Below are positions 1-9,498 of a DNA stretch of 11,137 bases, piece after piece. Positions within the stretch are counted from its first letter, which is position 1, and every line of letters starts with the position of its first letter. The position numbers and the translations under genes were made by a program. Origin of the DNA: a virus (Duplodnaviria; Heunggongvirae; Uroviricota; Caudoviricetes); IMG/VR virus record IMGVR_UViG_2526164688_000030. One strand, 5' to 3'. The notes beneath the pieces were generated by a model. The model saw nothing but the letters and a program-made list of their open reading frames with translations, was not told the DNA's origin and did no database searches.

Positions 1-876
1 GGATGGGGAGTAAGCTTAGTCAGCCGTTGTCTCCGGGTGTCGCGTGCGCAGTTGCACGTCATTCTCAGACGAACCGATGACTGGATGGATGGCCGCCGCA
101 GTCGTCACACTGATGATACGGATGTGCTTCTCCGTATACACCATGTTATCGGAGAGCTGCCCACGTATGGTTATCGTCGGGTATGGGCGCTGCTTCGCAG
201 ACAGGCAGAACTTGATGGTATGCCTGCGATCAATGCCAAACGTGTTTACCGGATCATGCGCCAGAATGCGCTGTTGCTTGAGCGAAAACCTGCTGTACCG
301 CCATCGAAACGGGCACATACAGGCAGAGTGGCTGTGAAAGAAAGTAATCAGCGATGGTGCTCTGACGGGTTCGAGTTCCGCTGTGATAACGGAGAAAAAC
401 TGCGAGTCACGTTCGCGCTGGACTGCTGTGACCGTGAGGCACTGCACTGGGCGGTCACTACGGGCGGCTTCAACAGTGAAACAGTACAGGACGTCATGCT
501 GGGAGCGGTGGAACGCCGCTTCGGCAACGAGCTTCCGGCGTCTCCAGTAGAGTGGCTGACGGATAATGGTTCATGCTACCGGGCTAATGAAACACGGCAG
601 TTTGCCCGGATGTTGGGGCTTGAACCGAAGAGCACGGCGGTGCGGAGTCCGGAGAGTAACGGCATAGCAGAGAGCTTCGTGAAAACGATAAAGCGTGACT
701 ACATCAGTGTCATGCCCAAACCAGACGGGTTAACGGCAGCAAAGAACCTTGCAGAGGCGTTCGAGCATTATAACGAATGGCATCCGCATAGTGCACTGGG
801 TTATCGCTCGCCACGGGAATATCTACGGCAGCAAGCCAGTAATGGGTTAAGTGATAACAGGTGTCTGGAAATATAG
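1..876 (+). CDS. insD: IS2 transposase OrfB (InsD), 5'-truncated by the window edge; DDE/RNase H-fold integrase-type catalytic domain
   Basis: Frame 1 is open from base 1 ([20 protein letters not shown]...), continuing the 37..876 ORF upstream; stop TAG at 874-876. Sequence is characteristic of IS3-family OrfB. Confidence 0.88.
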
Positions 877-887
877 GGGCAAATCCA
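1..887 (+). mobile_element. IS2: IS2 insertion sequence, 3' portion (left end lies outside the window); right terminus ...TGGAAATATAGGGGCAAATCCA ends at 887
   Basis: Encoded protein matches recalled IS2 InsD over its whole visible length; terminal sequence at 866-887 matches the IS2 right inverted repeat as I recall it. Coding frame is open from base 1, so the element continues upstream of the window. Confidence 0.88.
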
Positions 888-959
888 GTTCGTAAAATTG
901 GTGGAATCCGTTTTCCTTTGCTGGCAGTCCGTGCTTATTATGCGTCCAGTATAGCTATT

Positions 960-2342
960 ATGACATCGCAAGGGACGTGGGTTAGTGCTTTAGAACGCCT
1001 AGAGCGTGCGCTTAGGCTGTGTTGTTTTTTTCGAAAGCATACTGATTTCAGGGATGAATTTGATCAGCTTTCGGCACATCTACTAGCAGAGTATGAACGT
1101 ACCAGAGAACAAGGCGATTCACCTTATCCGCTGCGACTCCTGCAACTCGATATCGACTGTAAAGTGAGTGAGCCATCTTTTATTGCCCAGGAACTCCTGT
1201 TTCTGACAAAAAACTATCTGGCTCAAAAATTATTTTCATTTGCCGTCGATGCCTGTAAAACCGCAATCCCGATTGCGAATAGGTGCTGTGACAGAGATAC
1301 ACAGTTTGAATTCTGGCGGCTTCTTGCCGATACACATCTGGAAGAGTCAAAATTCCAAGATGGCGGTATGATTTCGGCAGCCTGCATGCAGAATGCTATT
1401 GAAGCACTGGCTAATATTCCAGGAACCCGAATAGAACGTCTTGCGCTGTATGAAGAAATGCGTGATTACCAAATCGAATCCCGTCACCAGATGTCTATCC
1501 TTCAGTCTCCCCCTCAAGATATTAGTGAGATTGTCCATCAAGCCAAGAGTCGGGTAGTCGGAAGAGATTTGTTTGATATGGTTTTCAGACTTGCGATGCT
1601 GGTCTGTCGGCCAACCAGCATTGAGAGACTTAAGGCTCAAGCAATAGAACAAAAGGCCAACAGCATAGCTTGGATGTTTGGATCAACACATATTGATCAT
1701 GAGGGAATGACACTTGCTCGCATACCCGCAGGATTGGGGATTGATGATGCAAATGGGGCAGTTATTTGGCCCATAATGATGACGAGAATGCGTATCGACC
1801 ATGAGTTGGCAGTAGCTGGGCAAATTATTCCTGCTACAGATGAGATCACAATGAAATATCCAATCTCGGAGGCGTTTTTTCGCGATATGTTCATCAATCA
1901 TCCCTTCATCCCGTTTGGGCATGAAGAGTTTTTCATCAAGGGTATGGTTTGCGGTTTCAATGGAGATTTTATGACGGCATGCCACGTGTTGATTCCCCAG
2001 ATCGAAAATAGTCTGAGATATGTGGCTAAAATTAAAGGTGAGGAACCATCGCAGCTTCACGGGGACGGTTCGCAAGAGCGAAATGGACTCAAGGGATTAC
2101 TAGATAATCCACTGATTATTGAAGCTTTCGGCGTAGACATAATTGGCAATCTTCAGGCCTTACTGGTAGATAAAATCTATGGTGATTTACGAAATCAACT
2201 AGCTCACGGATATGTGCCTGCCGGTTACTACAATCAACCTCCCTGCATTTTTGCATGGTGGCTTGTATTGCACATTCTAATGAACCCTACGGCGAGATAC
2301 TGGCAAGCCACTTATGGCCAAGAGAGTGAGGCTCAGACTTAA
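960..2342 (+). CDS. Hypothetical cargo protein (~460 aa from ATG 960; ORF open from 858) with C-terminal R-x4-H motif (DLRNQLAHG) suggesting a HEPN-like RNase domain; candidate abortive-infection/defence protein
   Basis: Long uninterrupted ORF with stop at 2340-2342. Start is uncertain: the frame is open across the IS2 boundary (GTG 861 lies inside IS2), ATG 960 is the first ATG after IS2 but has no clear SD, TTG 918 is an alternative. The R-N-x-x-x-H motif near the C-terminus is read directly. Convergent with flanking phage genes; not a recognisable lambdoid function. Confidence 0.55.
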   Translation: MTSQGTWVSALERLERALRLCCFFRKHTDFRDEFDQLSAHLLAEYERTREQGDSPYPLRLLQLDIDCKVSEPSFIAQELLFLTKNYLAQKLFSFAVDACKTAIPIANRCCDRDTQFEFWRLLADTHLEESKFQDGGMISAACMQNAIEALANIPGTRIERLALYEEMRDYQIESRHQMSILQSPPQDISEIVHQAKSRVVGRDLFDMVFRLAMLVCRPTSIERLKAQAIEQKANSIAWMFGSTHIDHEGMTLARIPAGLGIDDANGAVIWPIMMTRMRIDHELAVAGQIIPATDEITMKYPISEAFFRDMFINHPFIPFGHEEFFIKGMVCGFNGDFMTACHVLIPQIENSLRYVAKIKGEEPSQLHGDGSQERNGLKGLLDNPLIIEAFGVDIIGNLQALLVDKIYGDLRNQLAHGYVPAGYYNQPPCIFAWWLVLHILMNPTARYWQATYGQESEAQT

Positions 2343-2439
2343 AGTGAATAAGTTTACGAAGTTGGCACTTCCGGATGCATGTCCATATGAGTTGAGGCGA
2401 TTTGGTTAATAAGGTTGAGTGCTGCTGAAATTATTCGAT

Positions 2440-2463
2440 GTCCGCTTTTGGCACAAAGCGGAC
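2440..2463. terminator. Perfect 9-bp inverted repeat GTCCGCTTT-(TGGCAC)-AAAGCGGAC between convergent genes; possible bidirectional terminator or protein-binding palindrome
   Basis: Arms 2440-2448 and 2455-2463 are exact reverse complements; located in the 218-bp gap between the + strand cargo gene and the - strand 133-aa gene. No clean U-tract follows on either strand. Confidence 0.3.
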
Positions 2464-2560
2464 AACCACGCCAGATCTACCCTGTGCCATGAAAAATGAG
2501 AATGTCAATTCACTCCTGAACTAATGCTTTTTAATCTAGTAACGTCTAAAATACCTAACA

Positions 2561-2962
2561 TTATCCCTGATAAAATGCCAGTATGCGCTGCATAACTTCA
2601 CTCATCCGGCACTCGCGACAGATTATGTTTAGGCGACTGTCGTAGCGACGTATTTCTCCATCAGGTAACGACCAGATAAGGTCCGGATCAACCACAGCTG
2701 TTTTCTTCACCTTTGCCCTCGAGAGTTTTTTGCGGGCGTTTTGCCAGTCCTTACGCGCCTGTTCAGACGGGAATAACCCGTAGCCGGAGTTGTATACATC
2801 GCCACTGGCTACCAGCTCTCTGGCAAGAACGCTCATCAGATATCTAGTCGCACCTGTTTTAGCTTCCAGTTGCCGTAACGTCTCACGACCGCTCTGGCGC
2901 ACGAGTTCCACCACCTGCCCTTTAATTTTTTCCCGCTCTTCTTGTGTAAAAACTTTTGCCAC
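2561..2962 (-). CDS. Hypothetical phage early-right protein (133 aa), function unknown
   Basis: GTG start at 2962 preceded by a strong SD (AAGGGGGA, short 3-nt spacer) on the minus strand; lies 40 nt downstream of the replication gene in the same orientation. Confidence 0.6.
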   Translation of the reverse strand: MAKVFTQEEREKIKGQVVELVRQSGRETLRQLEAKTGATRYLMSVLARELVASGDVYNSGYGLFPSEQARKDWQNARKKLSRAKVKKTAVVDPDLIWSLPDGEIRRYDSRLNIICRECRMSEVMQRILAFYQG

Positions 2963-3002
2963 AAGTCCCCCTTAAAATTACCTCATGACCTGAAATCAAA
3001 AC

Positions 3003-3968
3003 TTATCCTCTGAAACCAGGCGGAATTTCTGTATCCGGTTCAGAAATATGATTAACACAACGCTGTACAGGTGAACGCCCCAGGCGGATGACCAGTTCGT
3101 CCCATTTTTCGCGGAGCTTTGACGGGCTCATGATGTTTTTTACCCAGAATGGATCCCGCTGTACCCGACCAAACATTTCACAAATTTGTCTGTGGCTTCT
3201 GCCATCCAGCATCCGCATTGTGCGCACATCATTGGCCCAGACAGTCCAGTTAGGCTCTTTTGGTCGCATGATCTCGCCATCATCACTGGCGGCCTGTTCG
3301 TAGAGACCCACGATCCGCCCCCATATCCACTGCGCACACGCCAGATCCTCCTGGCTACCCCACTGGCGTTTTTTCGCACTAAACACAACTGCGCCAGGGT
3401 GCCGGATTAAAAAATCCTGTTCAGCCGTCTGCGGGTCCGGTTGCGAAGCTTCCGGACGAAAAGTGTTTTTATTCTCTGTAGTAATCTCTGTTGTATTCTC
3501 TGTAGGATCATCGGGCCATTTTGACCCGATGACATTGGGTCGTTTTGAACCAATGGAGCGTTTCATTTTGACCTCTTCCATCGTGTCATTTTGACCTGAT
3601 GGAGCGGCGCATTTTGAACCGATGGATTCGCTCAATTTGCCATCATCTAAAAGCTCGCTCCCATAGTTAATCGTGTAGAAATTGGTCATATCGCGCTTTG
3701 ATTTATTGAGCTTTTCACAACGCAAAAGCCCCAGCGTTTTCAGACTTGCAAACGCGCGCTTTAACGTTGACTCTGACCAGAATGGGAACTGTTCCAGCCA
3801 TTGTTCCGTTGTGTTGTAAATCCAGCGAACACCATCACATTCCATGCCGGAATTGGTATCTCTCAACCAGTAATGCAACTGCTGCAACACAATGGCTTCA
3901 TTTAAGCCAATCTTCATCGCAAGCTGTGTGTTTATAACCAGTGGGCGTTCAGCAAAAAGAAGGCTCAT
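3003..3968 (-). CDS. Putative phage replication initiation protein (lambda O-like role; N-terminal winged-helix-like region, C-terminal DnaT-like region); contains the iteron array
   Basis: ORF 3003..4022 (TTG at 4022); the more likely start is ATG 3968 with GGATGG 5-7 nt upstream, overlapping the upstream gene by 20 nt. Position downstream of the Cro-like gene and internal iterons (protein repeats SIGSK...SIGSK...VIGSK) match lambdoid O-gene architecture. Family assignment is from recollection, not a search. Confidence 0.7.
   Translation of the reverse strand: MSLLFAERPLVINTQLAMKIGLNEAIVLQQLHYWLRDTNSGMECDGVRWIYNTTEQWLEQFPFWSESTLKRAFASLKTLGLLRCEKLNKSKRDMTNFYTINYGSELLDDGKLSESIGSKCAAPSGQNDTMEEVKMKRSIGSKRPNVIGSKWPDDPTENTTEITTENKNTFRPEASQPDPQTAEQDFLIRHPGAVVFSAKKRQWGSQEDLACAQWIWGRIVGLYEQAASDDGEIMRPKEPNWTVWANDVRTMRMLDGRSHRQICEMFGRVQRDPFWVKNIMSPSKLREKWDELVIRLGRSPVQRCVNHISEPDTEIPPGFRG
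3470..3505. repeat. Three tandem 12-bp direct repeats (TATTCTCTGTAG / TAATCTCTGTTG / TATTCTCTGTAG) adjacent to the iteron array
   Basis: Read directly; encodes the TENTTEITTENK repeat in the replication protein. Sits immediately promoter-distal of the iterons, where lambdoid origins carry their A/T-rich unwinding region. Confidence 0.5.
3517..3647. repeat. Iteron array: six direct repeats of ~CATTTTGA(A/C)C(N)GATGG at a regular 23-bp period; putative prophage origin of replication inside the initiator gene
   Basis: Copies begin at 3517, 3541, 3564, 3587, 3610 and a degenerate one at 3633, all read directly from the sequence. Confidence 0.6.
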
Positions 3969-4470
3969 AATTCCATCCAGCTTTTTGTTGGTATTGCTGT
4001 CGATACGCAAGTTTGAAAGCAATTGCTTTTTCTATAAGTTCGTCAGTTTCACGATCCACTACGGCAGGATCAGCAAAAAGCAGTCCGGACTCCACCACAT
4101 CGCCATATTCTTTGTTTAACCCGGCGATCATGTACGTGATGCTTTTTCCGTCACTAATTTCACGATACAACCTGAAATCATTAATCCGGATAGCCTCCAT
4201 AATTGCAGGCACTAGCGCCGTGAACTTTTCACGCTTATCCCTGGTGTCGATAGCCTTCCAGCGTTCGAATATCTTCACTCGATTAACGCCAAGCGCTCGC
4301 TGATCAACCGCGCCACCTTCATCTGTGACACGCTGAACATCGATGTTCGGGCGCTCTTTCAAAGCCCAGAATGCTTCAGTGATTAATATCGTCGCCTGCT
4401 CCTGTGTCATTCCTGGTCGACATATCCAGGCATCCAGAGCCTCACGAGCCTGTTCAGGAGTGATTTTCAT
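3949..4470 (-). CDS. Hypothetical early-right protein (173 aa) in the cII/YdaT-like position between the Cro-like gene and the replication gene
   Basis: ATG at 4470 with G-rich SD (GGGGCGG) ~7 nt upstream; overlaps the dicC-like stop by 17 nt and the replication gene start by 20 nt (translational coupling). No confident family recognition. Confidence 0.6.
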   Translation of the reverse strand: MKITPEQAREALDAWICRPGMTQEQATILITEAFWALKERPNIDVQRVTDEGGAVDQRALGVNRVKIFERWKAIDTRDKREKFTALVPAIMEAIRINDFRLYREISDGKSITYMIAGLNKEYGDVVESGLLFADPAVVDRETDELIEKAIAFKLAYRQQYQQKAGWNYEPSFC

Positions 4471-4681
4471 TGTTCAACCGCCCCGCCCGCTTCGTCTTAC
4501 GATATTCGTCATAAACCTTGGGATCATACAGAAGCTCCCCGCCAGATGCCTCCTGTAGACGCATCGCGCGACCTTCAGGAACCAGTATCCCCCAAGCAGC
4601 AACACTTGCCAGTCTCACTCCTGCGGCATTGGCAAGCTTTGTTTTGCTGCCAAAAAAAGTAATTGCGTCAACTTTAAGCAT
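4454..4681 (-). CDS. dicC: DicC-like Cro-type small DNA-binding regulator (75 aa)
   Basis: ATG at 4681 with strong SD (AGAGGGGG, 5-nt spacer); protein (MLKVDAITFFGSKTKLANAAGVRLASVAAWG...RLQEASGGELLYDPKVYDEYRKTKRAGRLNNENHS) closely resembles recalled E. coli Qin DicC; divergent from the dicA-like gene. Confidence 0.8.
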   Translation of the reverse strand: MLKVDAITFFGSKTKLANAAGVRLASVAAWGILVPEGRAMRLQEASGGELLYDPKVYDEYRKTKRAGRLNNENHS

Positions 4682-4694
4682 CAAAGCCCCCTCT

Positions 4695-4712
4695 TGTTAG
4701 ACTTTTCTAACA
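4695..4712. promoter_or_regulatory. Operator-like palindrome TGTTAGA-cttt-TCTAACA in the dicC/dicA divergent promoter region (putative DicA/DicC binding site)
   Basis: 7-bp perfect inverted arms 4695-4701 / 4706-4712; overlaps the dicC RBS/promoter region; a near-identical palindrome recurs at 5205-5224. Confidence 0.5.
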
Positions 4713-4761
4713 TTATTGTGCGCGGGATATCTAAGTCAAGAAAAATTAGAATTACCTAACT

Positions 4762-5169
4762 ATGGATACAAGAACCCTAGGCCAGCGAGTTCTGGCGCGA
4801 CGAAAAGAATTACGCTTAACACAACGAGAAGCTGCGCGCCTCGCTGGAGTTGCTCACGTCACAATTTCACAATGGGAAAGAGACGAAACCCAGCCAGTCG
4901 GAAAACGATTGTTTGCTTTAGCGGATGCTCTGAAGTGCTCACCTACATGGCTAATGTTTGGTGACGAAGACAAGGCACCAGTGCCTGCACAAGAACTTCA
5001 TGTGGAAACAGAGCTAACTCCCAACCACAAAGAATTGATCGAATTATTCGATGCTCTTCCATCTTCCGAGCAGGAAGCCTTGCTGTCTGAAATGCGCGCA
5101 AGAGTAGAAAACTTCAACAAACTCTTCGAAGAAATGCTTAAAGCGCGTAAAAATAAATCAATAAAATAA
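4762..5169 (+). CDS. dicA: DicA-like HTH (XRE/P22 C2-type) prophage repressor, 135 aa
   Basis: N-terminal HTH (LRLTQREAARLAGVAHVTISQWERDETQPVGKRLFALADALKCSPTWLMFGDEDK) and C-terminal block (ELIELFDALPSSEQEALLSEMRARVENFNKLFEEMLKAR) closely resemble recalled K-12 DicA; divergent from the Cro-like gene. Confidence 0.85.
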   Translation: MDTRTLGQRVLARRKELRLTQREAARLAGVAHVTISQWERDETQPVGKRLFALADALKCSPTWLMFGDEDKAPVPAQELHVETELTPNHKELIELFDALPSSEQEALLSEMRARVENFNKLFEEMLKARKNKSIK

Positions 5170-5204
5170 CATTCTTTTCAAGTGATTAGTTGCGCCCACT
5201 CTTT

Positions 5205-5224
5205 TTGTTAGACCAATCTAACAA
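5205..5224. promoter_or_regulatory. Second operator palindrome TTGTTAGA-ccaa-TCTAACAA, between dicA and ydfA-like; putative operator of the dicB-operon promoter
   Basis: 8-bp perfect inverted arms 5205-5212 / 5217-5224; 36 nt after the dicA stop and ~114 nt before the ydfA-like ATG. Confidence 0.5.
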
Positions 5225-5337
5225 AAAACACTTGCCTATCATGTTAGGTTATTCTAAATTACTTTCCATCAAGACACCGCACGGTGTTCTCAGCAAACAG
5301 TTCCGCTACCCCGGCGTTAAGGGGAAATGAGGTCAGC

Positions 5338-5493
5338 ATGGATACTATCGATCTTGGCAACAGCGAATCTCTGGTATGTGGCGTGTTCCCCAACCAGGAC
5401 GGCACGTTCACCGCGATGACGTATACCAAAAGCAAAACGTTTAAAACCGAAAATGGTGCCCGTCGCTGGCTGGAAAGAAACTCAGGTGAGTGA
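5338..5493 (+). CDS. ydfA: YdfA/YdaF-like small protein (51 aa) of the dicB operon
   Basis: ATG 5338 with purine-rich SD (GAGGT); protein MDTIDLGNSESLVCGVFPNQDGTFTAMTYTKSKTFKTENGARRWLERNSGE matches recalled Qin YdfA; stop TGA at 5491-5493. Confidence 0.75.
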   Translation: MDTIDLGNSESLVCGVFPNQDGTFTAMTYTKSKTFKTENGARRWLERNSGE

Positions 5494-5494
5494 T

Positions 5495-6070
5495 ATGGAT
5501 TTCGACACAATCATGGAAAAGGCTTACGAAGAATACTTCGAAGGCCTTGCCGAAGGCGAAGAAGCTCTCAGCTTCAGTGAGTTTAAACAGGCACTCAGAA
5601 TAAGAATGTGCTCTCACAATGACGCGGAGCACAAATATGAGAAGCAAAATCAGACCGCAGAAAATTTTGTTCTGGAACCCGGAGAAACGCTTTTCAAAAT
5701 TCCCGTTACGTGCCCCATTTGCGGTTTTACATCAGAAGAACTTGACGACTCCTGTAACAATCAGGAAACAACCAAGTATGTCGAAGATGATACCGAGTGC
5801 GCACGAAGAACGATTATATCCACGAGTCCAAACTCCAGGGCCAATAAATCTCACTTTGAGAGGGTGATTAATCCACTCCCCCAAACCAATAAAAAAGATG
5901 CCGGAGGACAAAAAACCCAATGGAACAACGGGATATCTGTCAAAAAAAGACGTTCCATTAAAGACAAACAACGCAGCGCCAACAACTGTAAGCGCTTTAT
6001 ACCAGTAATCAATTTTCATGTTCTTAAGCGGATTTATTGGTGGTTGCGACATTGCTTAATGAATCCTTAA
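5495..6070 (+). CDS. ydfB: YdfB-like protein; N-terminus MDFDTIMEKAYEEYFEGLAEGEEALSFSEFKQAL; ORF stays open for 191 codons but the C-terminal extent is uncertain
   Basis: ATG 5495 is 1 nt after the ydfA stop with SD CAGGTGAG. N-terminal ~35 aa match recalled YdfB. The K/R/N-rich 3' half and rare codons suggest the distal part may be an antisense shadow of the minus-strand ORF 5732..6052. Confidence 0.45.
   Translation: MDFDTIMEKAYEEYFEGLAEGEEALSFSEFKQALRIRMCSHNDAEHKYEKQNQTAENFVLEPGETLFKIPVTCPICGFTSEELDDSCNNQETTKYVEDDTECARRTIISTSPNSRANKSHFERVINPLPQTNKKDAGGQKTQWNNGISVKKRRSIKDKQRSANNCKRFIPVINFHVLKRIYWWLRHCLMNP
5732..6052 (-). CDS. Candidate small membrane protein (106 aa, about three predicted TM segments) antisense to the 3' half of the ydfB-like ORF
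   Basis: ATG at 6052; translation has three hydrophobic stretches (ALTVVGAALFVF, VVPLGFLSSGIFFIGLG, ALGIIFDILGCFLIVTGVV). Only a weak SD (GGA 13 nt upstream). Cannot be resolved against the overlapping plus-strand ORF from sequence alone. Confidence 0.3.
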   Translation of the reverse strand: MSQPPINPLKNMKIDYWYKALTVVGAALFVFNGTSFFDRYPVVPLGFLSSGIFFIGLGEWINHPLKVRFIGPGVWTRGYNRSSCALGIIFDILGCFLIVTGVVKFF

Positions 6071-6091
6071 AACTGTGGTGATTTTAAGGAT
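6063..6091. other. Perfect 10-bp inverted repeat ATCCTTAAAA-(ctgtggtga)-TTTTAAGGAT
   Basis: Arms 6063-6072 / 6082-6091; overlaps the stop of the plus ORF and lies just upstream of the minus-strand ORF start; candidate RNA hairpin or palindromic binding site. Confidence 0.35.
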
Positions 6092-6329
6092 ACCACCTCG
6101 CCTGACGTGGTTAAAAGCAGGCACACAACACGAAAGCGCACGGCGAAGTTCGTCTCACTGTACGGTGTCGTTAAATTTAATTCGACCGTGCGCTTCCGGT
6201 TGTGGCAACCCGCAAAATGGCGCGGCGGTAAGTATGGCGGGGTTATTCCTTCCCCGTTGAGGACACCGGGTTGTCAGGTTGACCATACGCTTAAGTGACA
6301 ACCCCGCTGCAACGCCCTCTGTTATCAAT

Positions 6330-6387
6330 TTTCTGGTGACGTTTGGCGGTATCAGTTTTACTCCGTGACTGCTCTGCCGCCGTTTTT
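6330..6387 (+). ncRNA. dicF: DicF small regulatory RNA (Hfq-dependent sRNA processed from the dicB-operon transcript; ftsZ antisense regulator)
   Basis: TTTCTGGTGACGTTTGGCGGTATCAGTTTTACTCCGTGACTGCTCTGCCGCCGTTTTT matches recalled E. coli DicF almost base-for-base, with 3' GC-rich stem plus U-tract, in the expected position between ydfB/C-like and dicB. Confidence 0.8.
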
Positions 6388-7026: not shown

Positions 7027-9498
7027 ATGAGTAAAGTCTTTATTTGCGCCGCTATTCCTGACGAACTGGCAACAAGGGAAGAAGGCGCTGTGGCTGTAGC
7101 CACAGCCATTGAAGCTGGCGACGAACGCCGTGCTCGAGCAAAATTTCACTGGCAATTCCTGGAACATTATCCGGCTGCTCAGGACTGCGCTTATAAATTT
7201 ATTGTCTGCGAGGATAAACCTGGCATACCCCGCCCTGCCCTCGATTCATGGGATGCTGAATATATGCAGGAAAACCGCTGGGATGAGGAGTCTGCTTCTT
7301 TTGTCCCGAATGAGACTGAATCCGATCCGATGAACGTCACTTTTGACAAGCTGGCCCCTGAAGTACAGAACGCTGTCATGGTTAAGTTCGACACATGTGA
7401 AAACATCACCGTTGATATGGTTATTAGCGCACAGGAATTGTTGCAGGAAGACATGGCAACATTCGACGGACATATCGTTGAAGCGTTGATGAAAATGCCA
7501 GAAGTTAACGCCATGTATCCGGAGCTTAAGTTGCACGCCATTGGGTGGGTTAAGCATAAATGTATTCCTGGTGCTAAATGGCCCGAAATTCAGGCAGAGA
7601 TGCGCATCTGGAAAAAACGTCGCGAAGGTGAACGCAAGGAAACCGGAAAATACACGTCTGTTGTTGATCTCGCACGCGCCAGAGCCAATCAACCGTACAC
7701 TGAAAATTCAACAGGAAAAATCAGCCCGGTCATTGCTGCCATTCATCGCGAATACAAGCAGACATGGAAAACACTGGATGACGAACTGGCCTACGCTCTC
7801 TGGCCTGGTGATGTGGATGCCGGAAACATTGACGGCAGCATCCATCGCTGGGCAAAAAAAGAAGTTATCGACAACGACCGCGAAGACTGGAAGCGTATCT
7901 CGGCATCAATGCGCAAACAGCCTGATGCCCTTCGCTACGACCGCCAGACTATTTTTGGCCTTGTCCGTGAGCGTCCGATCGACATTCACAAAGATCCCGT
8001 AGCACTGAACAAATATATCTGCGAATACCTGACGACAAAGGGCGTGTTTGAGAATGAAGAAACAGACCTGGGCACTGTTGATGTTCTCCAGTCATCAGAA
8101 ACACAAACTGATGCAGTGGAAACTGAGGTATCTGATATCCCAAAAAATGAAACCGCGCCGGAAGCTGAACCATCTGTAGAGCGTGAGGGGCCGTTCTATT
8201 TCCTCTTCGCAGATAAGGACGGAGAAAAATACGGTCGCGCAAACAAACTTTCTGGTCTGGATAAGGCACTGGCTGCTGGCGCCACTGAAATCACAAAAGA
8301 AGAATATTTTGCCCGAAAAAATGGCACATACACGGGCTTACCGCAAAATGTAGATACCGCTGAAGATTCAGAACAACCAGAGCCGATAAAAGTTACCGCT
8401 GACGAAGTAAACAAAATTATGCAGGCAGCCAATATCAGCCAGCCTGACGCCGATAAGTTGCTTGCTGCCTCTCGCGGAGAATTTGTTGCAGGGATTAGCG
8501 ACCCGAATGATCCGAAATGGGTTAAGGGGATCCAGACCCGCGATTCTGTAAACCAGAACCAGCATGAATCGGAACGGAACTACCAAAAAGCGGAACAAAA
8601 CAGCCCAAATGCGTTACAAAACGAGCCAGAAACGAAACAGCCTGAACCAGTGGCGCAACAGGAAGTGGAAAAAGTCTGCACCGCCTGCGGTCAGACCGGC
8701 GGCGGCAACTGCCCTGATTGTGGCGCGGTGATGGGCGACGCAACATACCAGGAAACATTCGATGAAGAGTATCAGGTTGAAGTTCAGGAAGATGATCCGG
8801 AGAAAATGGAAGGCGCTGAACATCCACACAAGGAGAACACTGGCGGCAATCAGCATCATGCCAGCGATAATGAAACTGGCGAGACGGCAGATCACTCAAT
8901 TAAGGTGAACGGTCATCAAGAAATCACATCCACCAGCAGGACGTGTGACCATCTAATGATCGACCTTGAAACCATGGGAAAAAATCCTGATGCCCCGATC
9001 ATCTCAATAGGTGCAATATTTTTCGATCCGCAAACCGGAGATATGGGACCGGAATTTAGTAAGACTATCGATCTGGAAACTGCTGGCGGAGTCATTGATC
9101 GGGACACCATTAAATGGTGGCTTAAGCAATCACGCGAAGCGCAATCTGCCATTATGACCGATGAAATCCCGTTAGATGATGCACTGTTACAATTGCGGGA
9201 ATTTATCGACGAAAACTCCGGTGAATTTTTTGTTCAGGTCTGGGGAAATGGAGCCAACTTCGACAACACGATTTTGCGCCGTTCATACGAACGGCAGGGG
9301 ATCCCCTGCCCGTGGCGTTACTACAACGATCGCGATGTACGCACAATCGTTGAGCTGGGGAAAGCCATAGACTTCGATGCCAGAACGGCTATTCCATTCG
9401 AAGGTGAGCGCCATAATGCACTTGATGACGCCCGTTACCAGGCAAAATACGTTTCAGTTATCTGGCAAAAACTGATCCCGAGTCAGGCTGATTCTTAA
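7027..9498 (+). CDS. ydfE: Full-length YdfE-like large early-left protein (823 aa): N-terminal domain of unknown function, central Cys4 zinc ribbon (CTACGQTGGGNCPDCG), C-terminal DnaQ-like DEDDh 3'-5' exonuclease domain
   Basis: ATG 7027 with SD GAGGT. The three DEDDh motifs are read directly: MIDLETMG (Exo I), WGNGANFDNTIL (Exo II), HNALDDARYQ (Exo III). The N-terminus matches the recalled K-12 YdfE fragment. Sits where lambdoid phages carry recombination/exonuclease genes, upstream of xis-int. Confidence 0.85.
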   Translation: MSKVFICAAIPDELATREEGAVAVATAIEAGDERRARAKFHWQFLEHYPAAQDCAYKFIVCEDKPGIPRPALDSWDAEYMQENRWDEESASFVPNETESDPMNVTFDKLAPEVQNAVMVKFDTCENITVDMVISAQELLQEDMATFDGHIVEALMKMPEVNAMYPELKLHAIGWVKHKCIPGAKWPEIQAEMRIWKKRREGERKETGKYTSVVDLARARANQPYTENSTGKISPVIAAIHREYKQTWKTLDDELAYALWPGDVDAGNIDGSIHRWAKKEVIDNDREDWKRISASMRKQPDALRYDRQTIFGLVRERPIDIHKDPVALNKYICEYLTTKGVFENEETDLGTVDVLQSSETQTDAVETEVSDIPKNETAPEAEPSVEREGPFYFLFADKDGEKYGRANKLSGLDKALAAGATEITKEEYFARKNGTYTGLPQNVDTAEDSEQPEPIKVTADEVNKIMQAANISQPDADKLLAASRGEFVAGISDPNDPKWVKGIQTRDSVNQNQHESERNYQKAEQNSPNALQNEPETKQPEPVAQQEVEKVCTACGQTGGGNCPDCGAVMGDATYQETFDEEYQVEVQEDDPEKMEGAEHPHKENTGGNQHHASDNETGETADHSIKVNGHQEITSTSRTCDHLMIDLETMGKNPDAPIISIGAIFFDPQTGDMGPEFSKTIDLETAGGVIDRDTIKWWLKQSREAQSAIMTDEIPLDDALLQLREFIDENSGEFFVQVWGNGANFDNTILRRSYERQGIPCPWRYYNDRDVRTIVELGKAIDFDARTAIPFEGERHNALDDARYQAKYVSVIWQKLIPSQADS

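Follow-up and report, generated by a model that had tools for sequence, protein, structure and literature searches.

The stretch of DNA analyzed here, called the window in the following, comprises the 11,137 nucleotides of the IMG/VR record IMGVR_UViG_2526164688_000030 (Caudoviricetes) and belongs to a lambdoid E. coli prophage of the Qin/mEp460/CP-933O type that is inserted beside rspB. On its minus strand it carries a gene for a replication initiator resembling the O protein of phage lambda, and within this gene lies a dense series of short repeats, which is considered here as a replication origin. The initiator matches PHROG 391 ('replication initiation O-like') with an E value of 3.5e-92, and its start at position 3968 is also the one annotated in RefSeq and in the isolated phages HannyBb, mEp460_ev081 and PhiR42_1. 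The features of the locus are listed in the direction of the gene.

3003..3968, minus strand: gene for the O-like replication initiator, 321 amino acids (aa), ATG at 3968 (open reading frame (ORF); PHROG 391)
3648..3968, minus strand: N-terminal domain, aa 1-107, predicted winged-helix DNA-binding domain with recognition helix at aa 66-78 (AlphaFold2 (AF2) model)
3625..3647, minus strand: iteron slot 0 (decayed copy), GATGATGGCAAATTGAGCGAATC, lying 23 nt upstream of iteron 1 and in register with it
3602..3624, minus strand: iteron 1, CATCGGTTCAAAATGCGCCGCTC, read as SIGSK (pattern and core matches)
3579..3601, minus strand: iteron 2, CATCAGGTCAAAATGACACGATG, read as SGQND (pattern and core matches)
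3556..3578, minus strand: iteron 3, GAAGAGGTCAAAATGAAACGCTC, read as EEVKMK (core match)
3533..3555, minus strand: iteron 4, CATTGGTTCAAAACGACCCAATG, read as SIGSK (pattern and core matches)
3509..3531, minus strand: iteron 5, CATCGGGTCAAAATGGCCCGATG, read as VIGSK, with the best dyad (inverted repeat; 24 nt from iteron 4)
3470..3505, minus strand: three tandem 12-mers, CTACAGAGAATA / CAACAGAGATTA / CTACAGAGAATA, encoding TENTTEITTEN (tandem repeat finder TRF)
3461..3469, minus strand: A5 tract closing the low-GC block, AAAAACACT (read from the sequence)
3435..3457, minus strand: 23-bp palindrome GTCCGGAAGC-TTC-GCAACCGGAC, with 8 of 10 arm pairs (read from the sequence)
3081..3401, minus strand: C-terminal domain, homologous to that of lambda O (BLASTP)
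3006..3065, minus strand: C-terminal 20 residues copying the tail of the host DnaT protein, …ISEPDTEIPPGFRG (comparison with E. coli K-12 DnaT)

The repeats span residues 108-165 of the 321 residues, between the N-domain (1-107) and the lambda-O-like C-domain (approximately 190-296). They start with six iteron slots of 23 nt each (3647-3509 on the gene strand), five strong and one decayed, at spacings of 23, 23, 23, 23 and 24 nt. Each iteron is an imperfect palindrome, with iteron 5 being self-complementary at 18 of 23 positions, and with at least four tandem, dyad-symmetric units about two helical turns apart the array is of the lambda type. The 10-nt core GKTCAAAAYG occurs in five exact copies in the window, all of them in the array and on one strand, and the 23-nt iteron pattern yielded four matches compared to 0.01 expected from shuffled sequences. 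A first-pass annotation, made from the letters and translations of the window, had described six direct repeats of about 16 bp at a strict period of 23 bp, and repeats were indeed found at the coordinates given there. The number six is right as a description of the architecture because slot 0 is present as a canonical iteron (GATGAGGTCAAAGTGACC) in relatives from Klebsiella, Citrobacter, Enterobacter, Xenorhabdus and Morganella, whereas the repeat unit had to be revised to a 23-nt imperfect palindrome and the last interval to 24 nt. With a period of 23 nt, which is not divisible by 3, the reading frame shifts along the array of six slots (0, 2, 1, 0, 2 and 2), and only the three iterons in frame 2 give the peptide SIGSK or VIGSK. 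One DNA word is thus kept in three frames, which shows that selection acts on the DNA, with the SIGSK peptides as by-products. The earlier suggestion that the linker tolerates the repeats agrees with this, as the peptide repeats follow from the DNA repeats.

The three 12-nt repeats noted beside the iterons in the first-pass annotation were recovered at the same place (TRF score 52, with ACAGAGAWTA occurring exactly three times), downstream of the iterons in the direction of the gene and before them in plus-strand coordinates. This block represents a putative DNA-unwinding or loading element, and the G+C content of the gene reaches its minimum there (27.5% at 3460-3499). The position of the palindrome behind it is conserved in enterobacterial relatives, where changes in the arms are compensatory (GGTTGC/GCAACC vs. 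GGTTCC/GGAACC). No DnaA boxes were found near the presumed origin, and their counts in the window are at chance level; reading the 12-mers themselves as DnaA boxes was dropped, since they show at best 6-7 of 9 matches by eye.

A Pfam search assigned the initiator to no family, and a threshold relaxed to E ≤ 10 gave no match either; lambda O, in comparison, scores 5.7e-36 with PF04492. The AF2 model of the N-domain, which was built on a 62-sequence alignment (pLDDT 86, pTM 0.78), shows the order helix-helix-hairpin-helix-helix-wing with helix 66-78 at the recognition position. Its best fold matches in the PDB are the N-domains of the plasmid Rep initiators 4pql, 5kbj and 4pt7 (E 2e-3, TM 0.56), including one Rep-DNA complex, and many winged helix-turn-helix regulators come next in the fold search. 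Searching PDB sequences with the N-domain profile gave no match, and the same search with the full protein gave only the DnaT tail and a spurious match to YteR. The possibility that the N-domain is a diverged lambda O N-domain was discarded (hhalign probability 0.05%, no profile similarity). For the C-terminal part, residues 147-294 align to residues 135-270 of lambda O with 34% identity over 148 aa (BLASTP, E 3e-27). The last iteron and the low-GC block encode the part in which this alignment starts, and the window gene and lambda O are therefore collinear from that point onward. At the DNA level, the C-half is 86-87% identical to the C-halves of E. coli prophage initiator genes with other N-domains.

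Relatives of the N-domain with 45-100% identity are present in prophages of many phyla, with hosts from the Enterobacterales, Pseudomonas, Acinetobacter, Comamonas, Desulfuromonas, Hydrogenimonas, Bacillus/Neobacillus, Staphylococcus, lactobacilli, clostridia, Thermomicrobiales, Caldilineaceae and Armatimonadales, and are joined to at least three kinds of C-domains (lambda-O type, Phg_2220_C and DnaD/DnaB_2). Copies of the E. coli- or Staphylococcus-type module were also seen in metagenome-assembled genomes or assemblies labelled as Veillonella, Bacillota, Collinsella, Nocardioides, Micromonospora and Micrarchaeota, which are probably binning or contamination artefacts and not true hosts. In nearly all of about 75 diverse N-domain homologues, iterons follow directly downstream of the domain. 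They are palindromic (NNNCA-N3-TGNNN) and spaced by 22-24 nt, and their arms vary by lineage (GGTCA, GGGCA, GTGCA, GGACA, GATCA, GTTCA, TATCA and others). We computed the covariation between N-domain residues and iteron bases for the 42 loci with a clear half-site and found that residue 67, the second residue of the predicted recognition helix (Ser67 in the window, codon 3768-3770, minus strand), varies with the base beside the invariant CA as follows.

Residue 67 Ser, Ala and similar: base T (21 loci)
Residue 67 Asp: base G (13 of 14 loci)
Residue 67 Lys or Arg: base A (7 of 7 loci)

The mutual information between residue and base amounts to 1.38/1.46 bits, which makes residue 67 the top column by a wide margin, and 7-8 independent switches of the pair were counted on a neighbour-joining tree calculated without that column. 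N-domains that are 86-90% identical differ in both residue and base, and N-domains with only 42-46% identity agree in both. This covariation may be regarded as the strongest available substitute for a footprint, with residue 67 as a candidate one-residue recognition code.

The 12-mers show a conservation of their own. In 78 loci chosen by their N-domain protein only, we compared the 330 nt after the N-domain with 469 kb of flanking sequence and found 142 copies of CAGAGAnTA in the former (in 59 of the 78 loci), compared to 7 in the flanks. The consensus of 126 copies is ACAGAGAnTACw, in which only one position is free, the second base of codon three, where changes alter the amino acid (N/T/I), while the synonymous third positions are fixed. 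Within the TE.T motifs, Thr is coded by ACA in 96 of 99 cases and Glu by GAG in 95 of 99, whereas elsewhere in the same ORFs these codons account for 24% and 48%, respectively (p ~1e-50 and ~1e-24), in hosts ranging from 32 to 70% GC. Because synonymous sites are frozen across phyla, the 12-mers point to a sequence-specific DNA element beyond a mere A/T-rich stretch. The copies lie in the same frame in 133 of 142 cases; in seven loci, the first copy precedes the next by 11 nt and falls in a different frame (…RDY followed by TETT…). A pattern scan of viral contigs revealed at least 120 loci with a 12-mer array. Among the matches listed, 119 of 120 arrays are in the same frame of the longest spanning ORF (median 309 aa), mostly near residues 130-175, and the 12 array-bearing ORFs that were inspected are initiator-like. 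The same array follows quite different iterons in the O gene of a Shiga toxin (Stx) phage and in the 'replication protein O' gene of Bacillus phage BtCS33. The N-domains of the array-bearing ORFs listed probably represent divergent subfamilies of one superfamily; an initial description as unrelated families was softened after single-linkage BLAST merged 105 of the 120 matches listed into one group. A full-text literature search for the 12-mer gave unrelated primer matches only, with older subscription literature lying outside the search, so that older descriptions are possible.

The initiator genes are modular around this point. Partial matches in complete E. coli genomes break at query position ~467, equivalent to window position ~3469 at the edge of the 12-mers (mosaic joint at ~3465-3475), and the N-half with the iterons and the C-half recombine independently in these genomes. 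Klebsiella phages have only the N-domain and the iterons in common with the window gene, and one viral contig changes its sequence directly after the second 12-mer. The N-domain and the iterons thus form one specificity module, with the 12-mers as the joint. A comparison of homologues for variation in repeat number, as proposed earlier, showed essentially no such variation among close relatives, as the layout of five cores and three 12-mers is essentially fixed in 80 contigs with N-domains of 99-100% identity. Repeat number varies between genera only, with 3-6 iterons and 2-5 12-mers.

We interpret the stretch 3435-3647 as the origin of vegetative replication of a lambdoid prophage of the Qin/mEp460 type, located within its initiator gene in the linker between the two domains, and regard this reading, together with the mechanism outlined here, as very probable. 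An origin inside an O-like initiator gene, as in lambda, had already been proposed in the first-pass annotation, and all computational tests turned out in its favour (PHROG 391, C-domain homology, element order, the use of three frames, and covariation). Following the paradigm of the lambda origin (PMC7466680), dimers of the N-terminal winged-helix domain would bind to the palindromic iterons (half-site NNTCA-N3-TGANN) and assemble on five or six sites, spaced by about 2.2 helical turns, into a multi-dimer complex that by analogy with lambda may resemble the O-some (PMC7466680). Stress from this complex, together with transcription driven from pR, would then open the adjacent low-GC block of three ACAGAGAnTACw 12-mers, again by analogy with lambda. 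Finally, the lambda-O-type C-domain and the tail copied from DnaT, which make up the C-terminal part of the initiator, would recruit the DnaB helicase of the host; this is the weakest step of the proposed sequence.

The likeness to lambda ori extends to the position of the origin within the initiator gene, between the coding regions of its domains, and to the order of iterons, low-GC block and palindrome. Both systems have palindromic iterons centred on an A-tract and 20-24 bp apart (lambda ATCCCTCAAAACGAGGGA, with spacings of 20, 24 and 23; window CATCGGGTCAAAATGGCCCGATG), followed on the coding strand by a low-GC, purine-rich block, and the palindrome of the window stands where lambda has its right-hand inverted repeat GTCAGAG-N14-CTCTGAC. 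The C-domains are homologous, and in both cases cro- and cII-like genes and a pR-like promoter lie upstream of the initiator gene. Lambda also retains one degenerate copy of the 12-mer (TCAGAGAATTC) at the corresponding place. Unlike lambda, the window codes for an N-domain other than Phage_rep_O (PF04492), contains six iteron slots instead of four and a low-GC block built as a regular 12-mer array, and lacks a P gene, with the initiator ending in the DnaT-like tail. The parallel drawn earlier was correct in the order of the elements; it had missed the different N-domain family, the lack of a P gene, the conserved sequence of the 12-mers in the A/T-rich region and the location of the gene on the minus strand. 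As such, an origin inside the initiator gene is a classic, well-known design, of which this is another and unsurprising instance.

The origins of Stx phages (933W/P27) contain six iterons, with weak binding at the ones farther from the A/T-rich block (PMC7466680); the decayed slot 0 of the window is a counterpart to this. The Stx phages differ from the window in having O and P proteins and iteron sequences of the lambda type. A relative of the N-domain (51% identity) is found in the 'DnaD domain protein' of Staphylococcus phage fPfSau02, whose gene also contains nearly identical iterons (CATCAGGTCAAAATGACCCGA) followed by CAGAGA-type repeats; in contrast to the window, its C-domain belongs to DnaB_2/DnaD (PF07261), and a replicative helicase gene comes next. 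The studied paradigm of DnaD-like phage replisome organizers is SPP1 G38P with oriL; an assignment of the window initiator to this type was rejected because PF07261 is absent from the protein. The plasmid Rep initiators, as the nearest solved folds, share the conserved DNA-binding N-domain, mid-gene iterons and an exchangeable C-domain, but the likeness is at the level of the fold (E 2e-3, 15-19% identity), and they serve plasmid replicons. We take 4pql, 4pt7 and 5kbj to be RepA_N proteins of the staphylococcal plasmids pSK41/pTZ2162, presumably also with an origin within the rep gene; membership of the window initiator in RepA_N was rejected, as it has no Pfam match. Sequence-specific unwinding elements are known from the 13-mers of oriC, the DnaA-trios and the repeats in the DNA unwinding elements of RK2 and F, which are bound as single-stranded DNA by Rep. 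The 12-mers resemble these elements as short tandem repeats that adjoin the double-strand sites of the initiator, show a strong strand asymmetry and are conserved as a sequence beyond their A/T content, but ACAGAGAnTACw matches none of them, and no DnaA box accompanies it.

The initiator ends in 20 residues (QRCVNHISEPDTEIPPGFRG) of which 14 are identical to residues 160-179 of E. coli K-12 DnaT, the extreme C-terminus of that protein, and the tail alone matches the NCBIfam DnaT model and the DnaT chains in the PDB. Tail variants (VPAGFRS, VPHGFRG and IPAGFRG) end enterobacterial homologues with a different C-domain. An identification of the whole protein as DnaT was rejected, since only residues 302-321 match, with 16.3 bits compared to the NCBIfam whole-protein cut-off of 201 bits. 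The gene is annotated as 'hypothetical protein' in RefSeq and as 'Primosomal protein I' in other records, the latter because of the DnaT-like tail alone. The tail looks like a short host-mimicking docking motif and presumably docks a component of the host primosome or helicase loader, as judged from the sequence. The gene following the initiator belongs to DUF977/LygF ('Ren-like') and is followed by one of DUF7380/DUF4209, while HannyBb contains QueH and DUF968 genes there. No P-, DnaC- or DnaB-like gene lies in the stretch of mEp460_ev081 downstream of the initiator that was examined. HannyBb, mEp460_ev081 and PhiR42_1 carry initiator genes 97-98% identical to that of the window, with origins differing by a few bases. 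The same initiator/origin module is thus carried by viable phages, which makes it an 'initiator-only' replication module of viable lambdoid phages.

With considerable reservation, we propose a further reading of the 12-mers as an ancient sequence-specific DNA element of origins and as the crossover point between modules; together with the residue-67 rule and the mimicry of the DnaT tail, they would define a widespread, largely undescribed type of replicon without a loader. In initiator genes of phages and prophages, the element would have a fixed orientation directly 3' of the iterons, whatever the sequence of the iterons or the C-domain, and its hosts would include Proteobacteria, Campylobacterota, Firmicutes, Chloroflexi and others. 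Most plausibly, it would be read as single-stranded DNA during unwinding or helicase loading, with the initiator superfamily or a universally conserved replisome protein as the reader.

Several points weigh against the reading of 3435-3647 as an active origin. Its firing, the binding of the initiator and the unwinding are all inferred. The binding mode of the N-domain is argued from the model and the covariation, since the domain has no detectable relation to that of lambda O. No P-, DnaC- or DnaB-like gene is present to the left of the initiator in the window (1-3002) or in the early operon of HannyBb (1-6100, the one phage operon scanned with Pfam), which leaves the recruitment of the helicase unexplained. 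A homologue from O157:H7 with the same C-domain and tail is followed by a gene for a DnaC-like ATPase, which means that the tail alone is no substitute for a loader, and a function of the extreme DnaT tail is not stated in PMC5778457, PMC13220808, PMC13377028 or PMC4129139. Finally, the prophage copy in the window may not be inducible, with an insertion sequence (IS) element nearby.

Another explanation is that the locus is the relic of a former origin which no longer fires in the window prophage, either because the prophage is defective or because a partner is missing. The Qin prophage of K-12 at the same rspB site, which we take to be a known cryptic prophage, would fit this explanation, as would the IS3-family transposase gene (37-876) interrupting a neighbouring gene, the lack of a helicase-loader gene, and the decay of slot 0 relative to its counterparts in other genera. 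Nevertheless, the initiator ORF is intact, as are int, xis, the repressor gene and the cro-like gene, the origin is only a few bases away from those of isolated phages, and these phages have the same layout without a loader, which makes a relic unlikely. Very unlikely, in our view, is that the iterons bind the initiator for control purposes such as autoregulation, copy-number handcuffing, phage exclusion or partition, with the true origin being elsewhere. Iterons do have such secondary roles in plasmids, and cloned iterons of lambda ori are reported to inhibit related phages (PMC3349717). A purely regulatory role is at odds with the conserved low-GC 12-mer block and the palindrome that always follow the iterons on the same strand, as in lambda ori; moreover, the window contains no other iteron copy, for example near the promoter, nor were a DnaA box or other features suggestive of an alternative origin recognized in it.

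The repeats may also be viewed as protein repeats, with selection acting on SIGSK and TENTTE peptides in a flexible linker and the DNA periodicity being only their shadow. SIGSK/SIGSK/VIGSK and TENTTEITTE are indeed visible in the translation, and the 12-mers keep to one frame in nearly all copies and viral ORFs (133 of 142 and, among the matches listed, 119 of 120). For the iterons, this explanation is effectively refuted by the period of 23 nt, which is not a multiple of 3, and by the six slots giving three unrelated peptides. In the 12-mers, it conflicts with the frozen synonymous positions next to a free non-synonymous one and with the seven loci that read the first copy in another frame, so that we assign it hardly any probability. 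An origin embedded in the initiator gene remains the reading we prefer.

In the surroundings of the gene, ORF and family searches identified int, xis, a large exonuclease, a CI-like repressor, a Cro-like and a YdaT/CII-like gene, and a scan for promoters found none within the origin and a pR-like site further upstream.

4712..4739, minus strand: pR-like promoter TTGACT-16-AATAAT (consensus scan only)

As predicted from its position, this promoter would drive the cro-like, YdaT/CII-like and O-like genes, with transcription running through the origin. The YdaT/CII-like gene (3949-4470, minus strand) overlaps the start of the initiator gene by 20 nt (3949-3968), which suggests translational coupling. 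At 6331-6382 on the plus strand lies the gene for the antisense small RNA DicF (Rfam RF00039, 72.5 bits), which fits a Qin-type prophage. The 823-aa 'exonuclease' (7027-9498, plus strand) has a single recognizable domain at its C-terminus, of the Rv2179c-like 3'-5' exoribonuclease fold (2e-67), and its first ~640 residues belong to no family. At the left end of the window, the IS3-family transposase ORF with rve domains (37-876, plus strand) abuts the DUF7380/DUF4209 gene (861-2342, plus strand). The latter is split by IS1203 in strain 720632, and mEp460_ev081 has a gene of 1350 bp for a 'hypothetical protein' at its place.

The finding is useful for the annotation of the initiator gene, which has matches in 3026 of 5426 complete E. 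coli genomes, so that this type of prophage occurs in more than half of them. The covariation would provide a testable recognition code for a very widespread initiator domain without a Pfam family. An initiator that ends in a DnaT tail and comes without a loader of its own may help to show how DnaT-type motifs bring in the helicase machinery of the host, a step which a preprimosome structure paper of 2026 still calls unknown. Finally, the 12-mer suggests that the unwinding or loading regions of phages carry sequence information, which raises a general question for replication origins.

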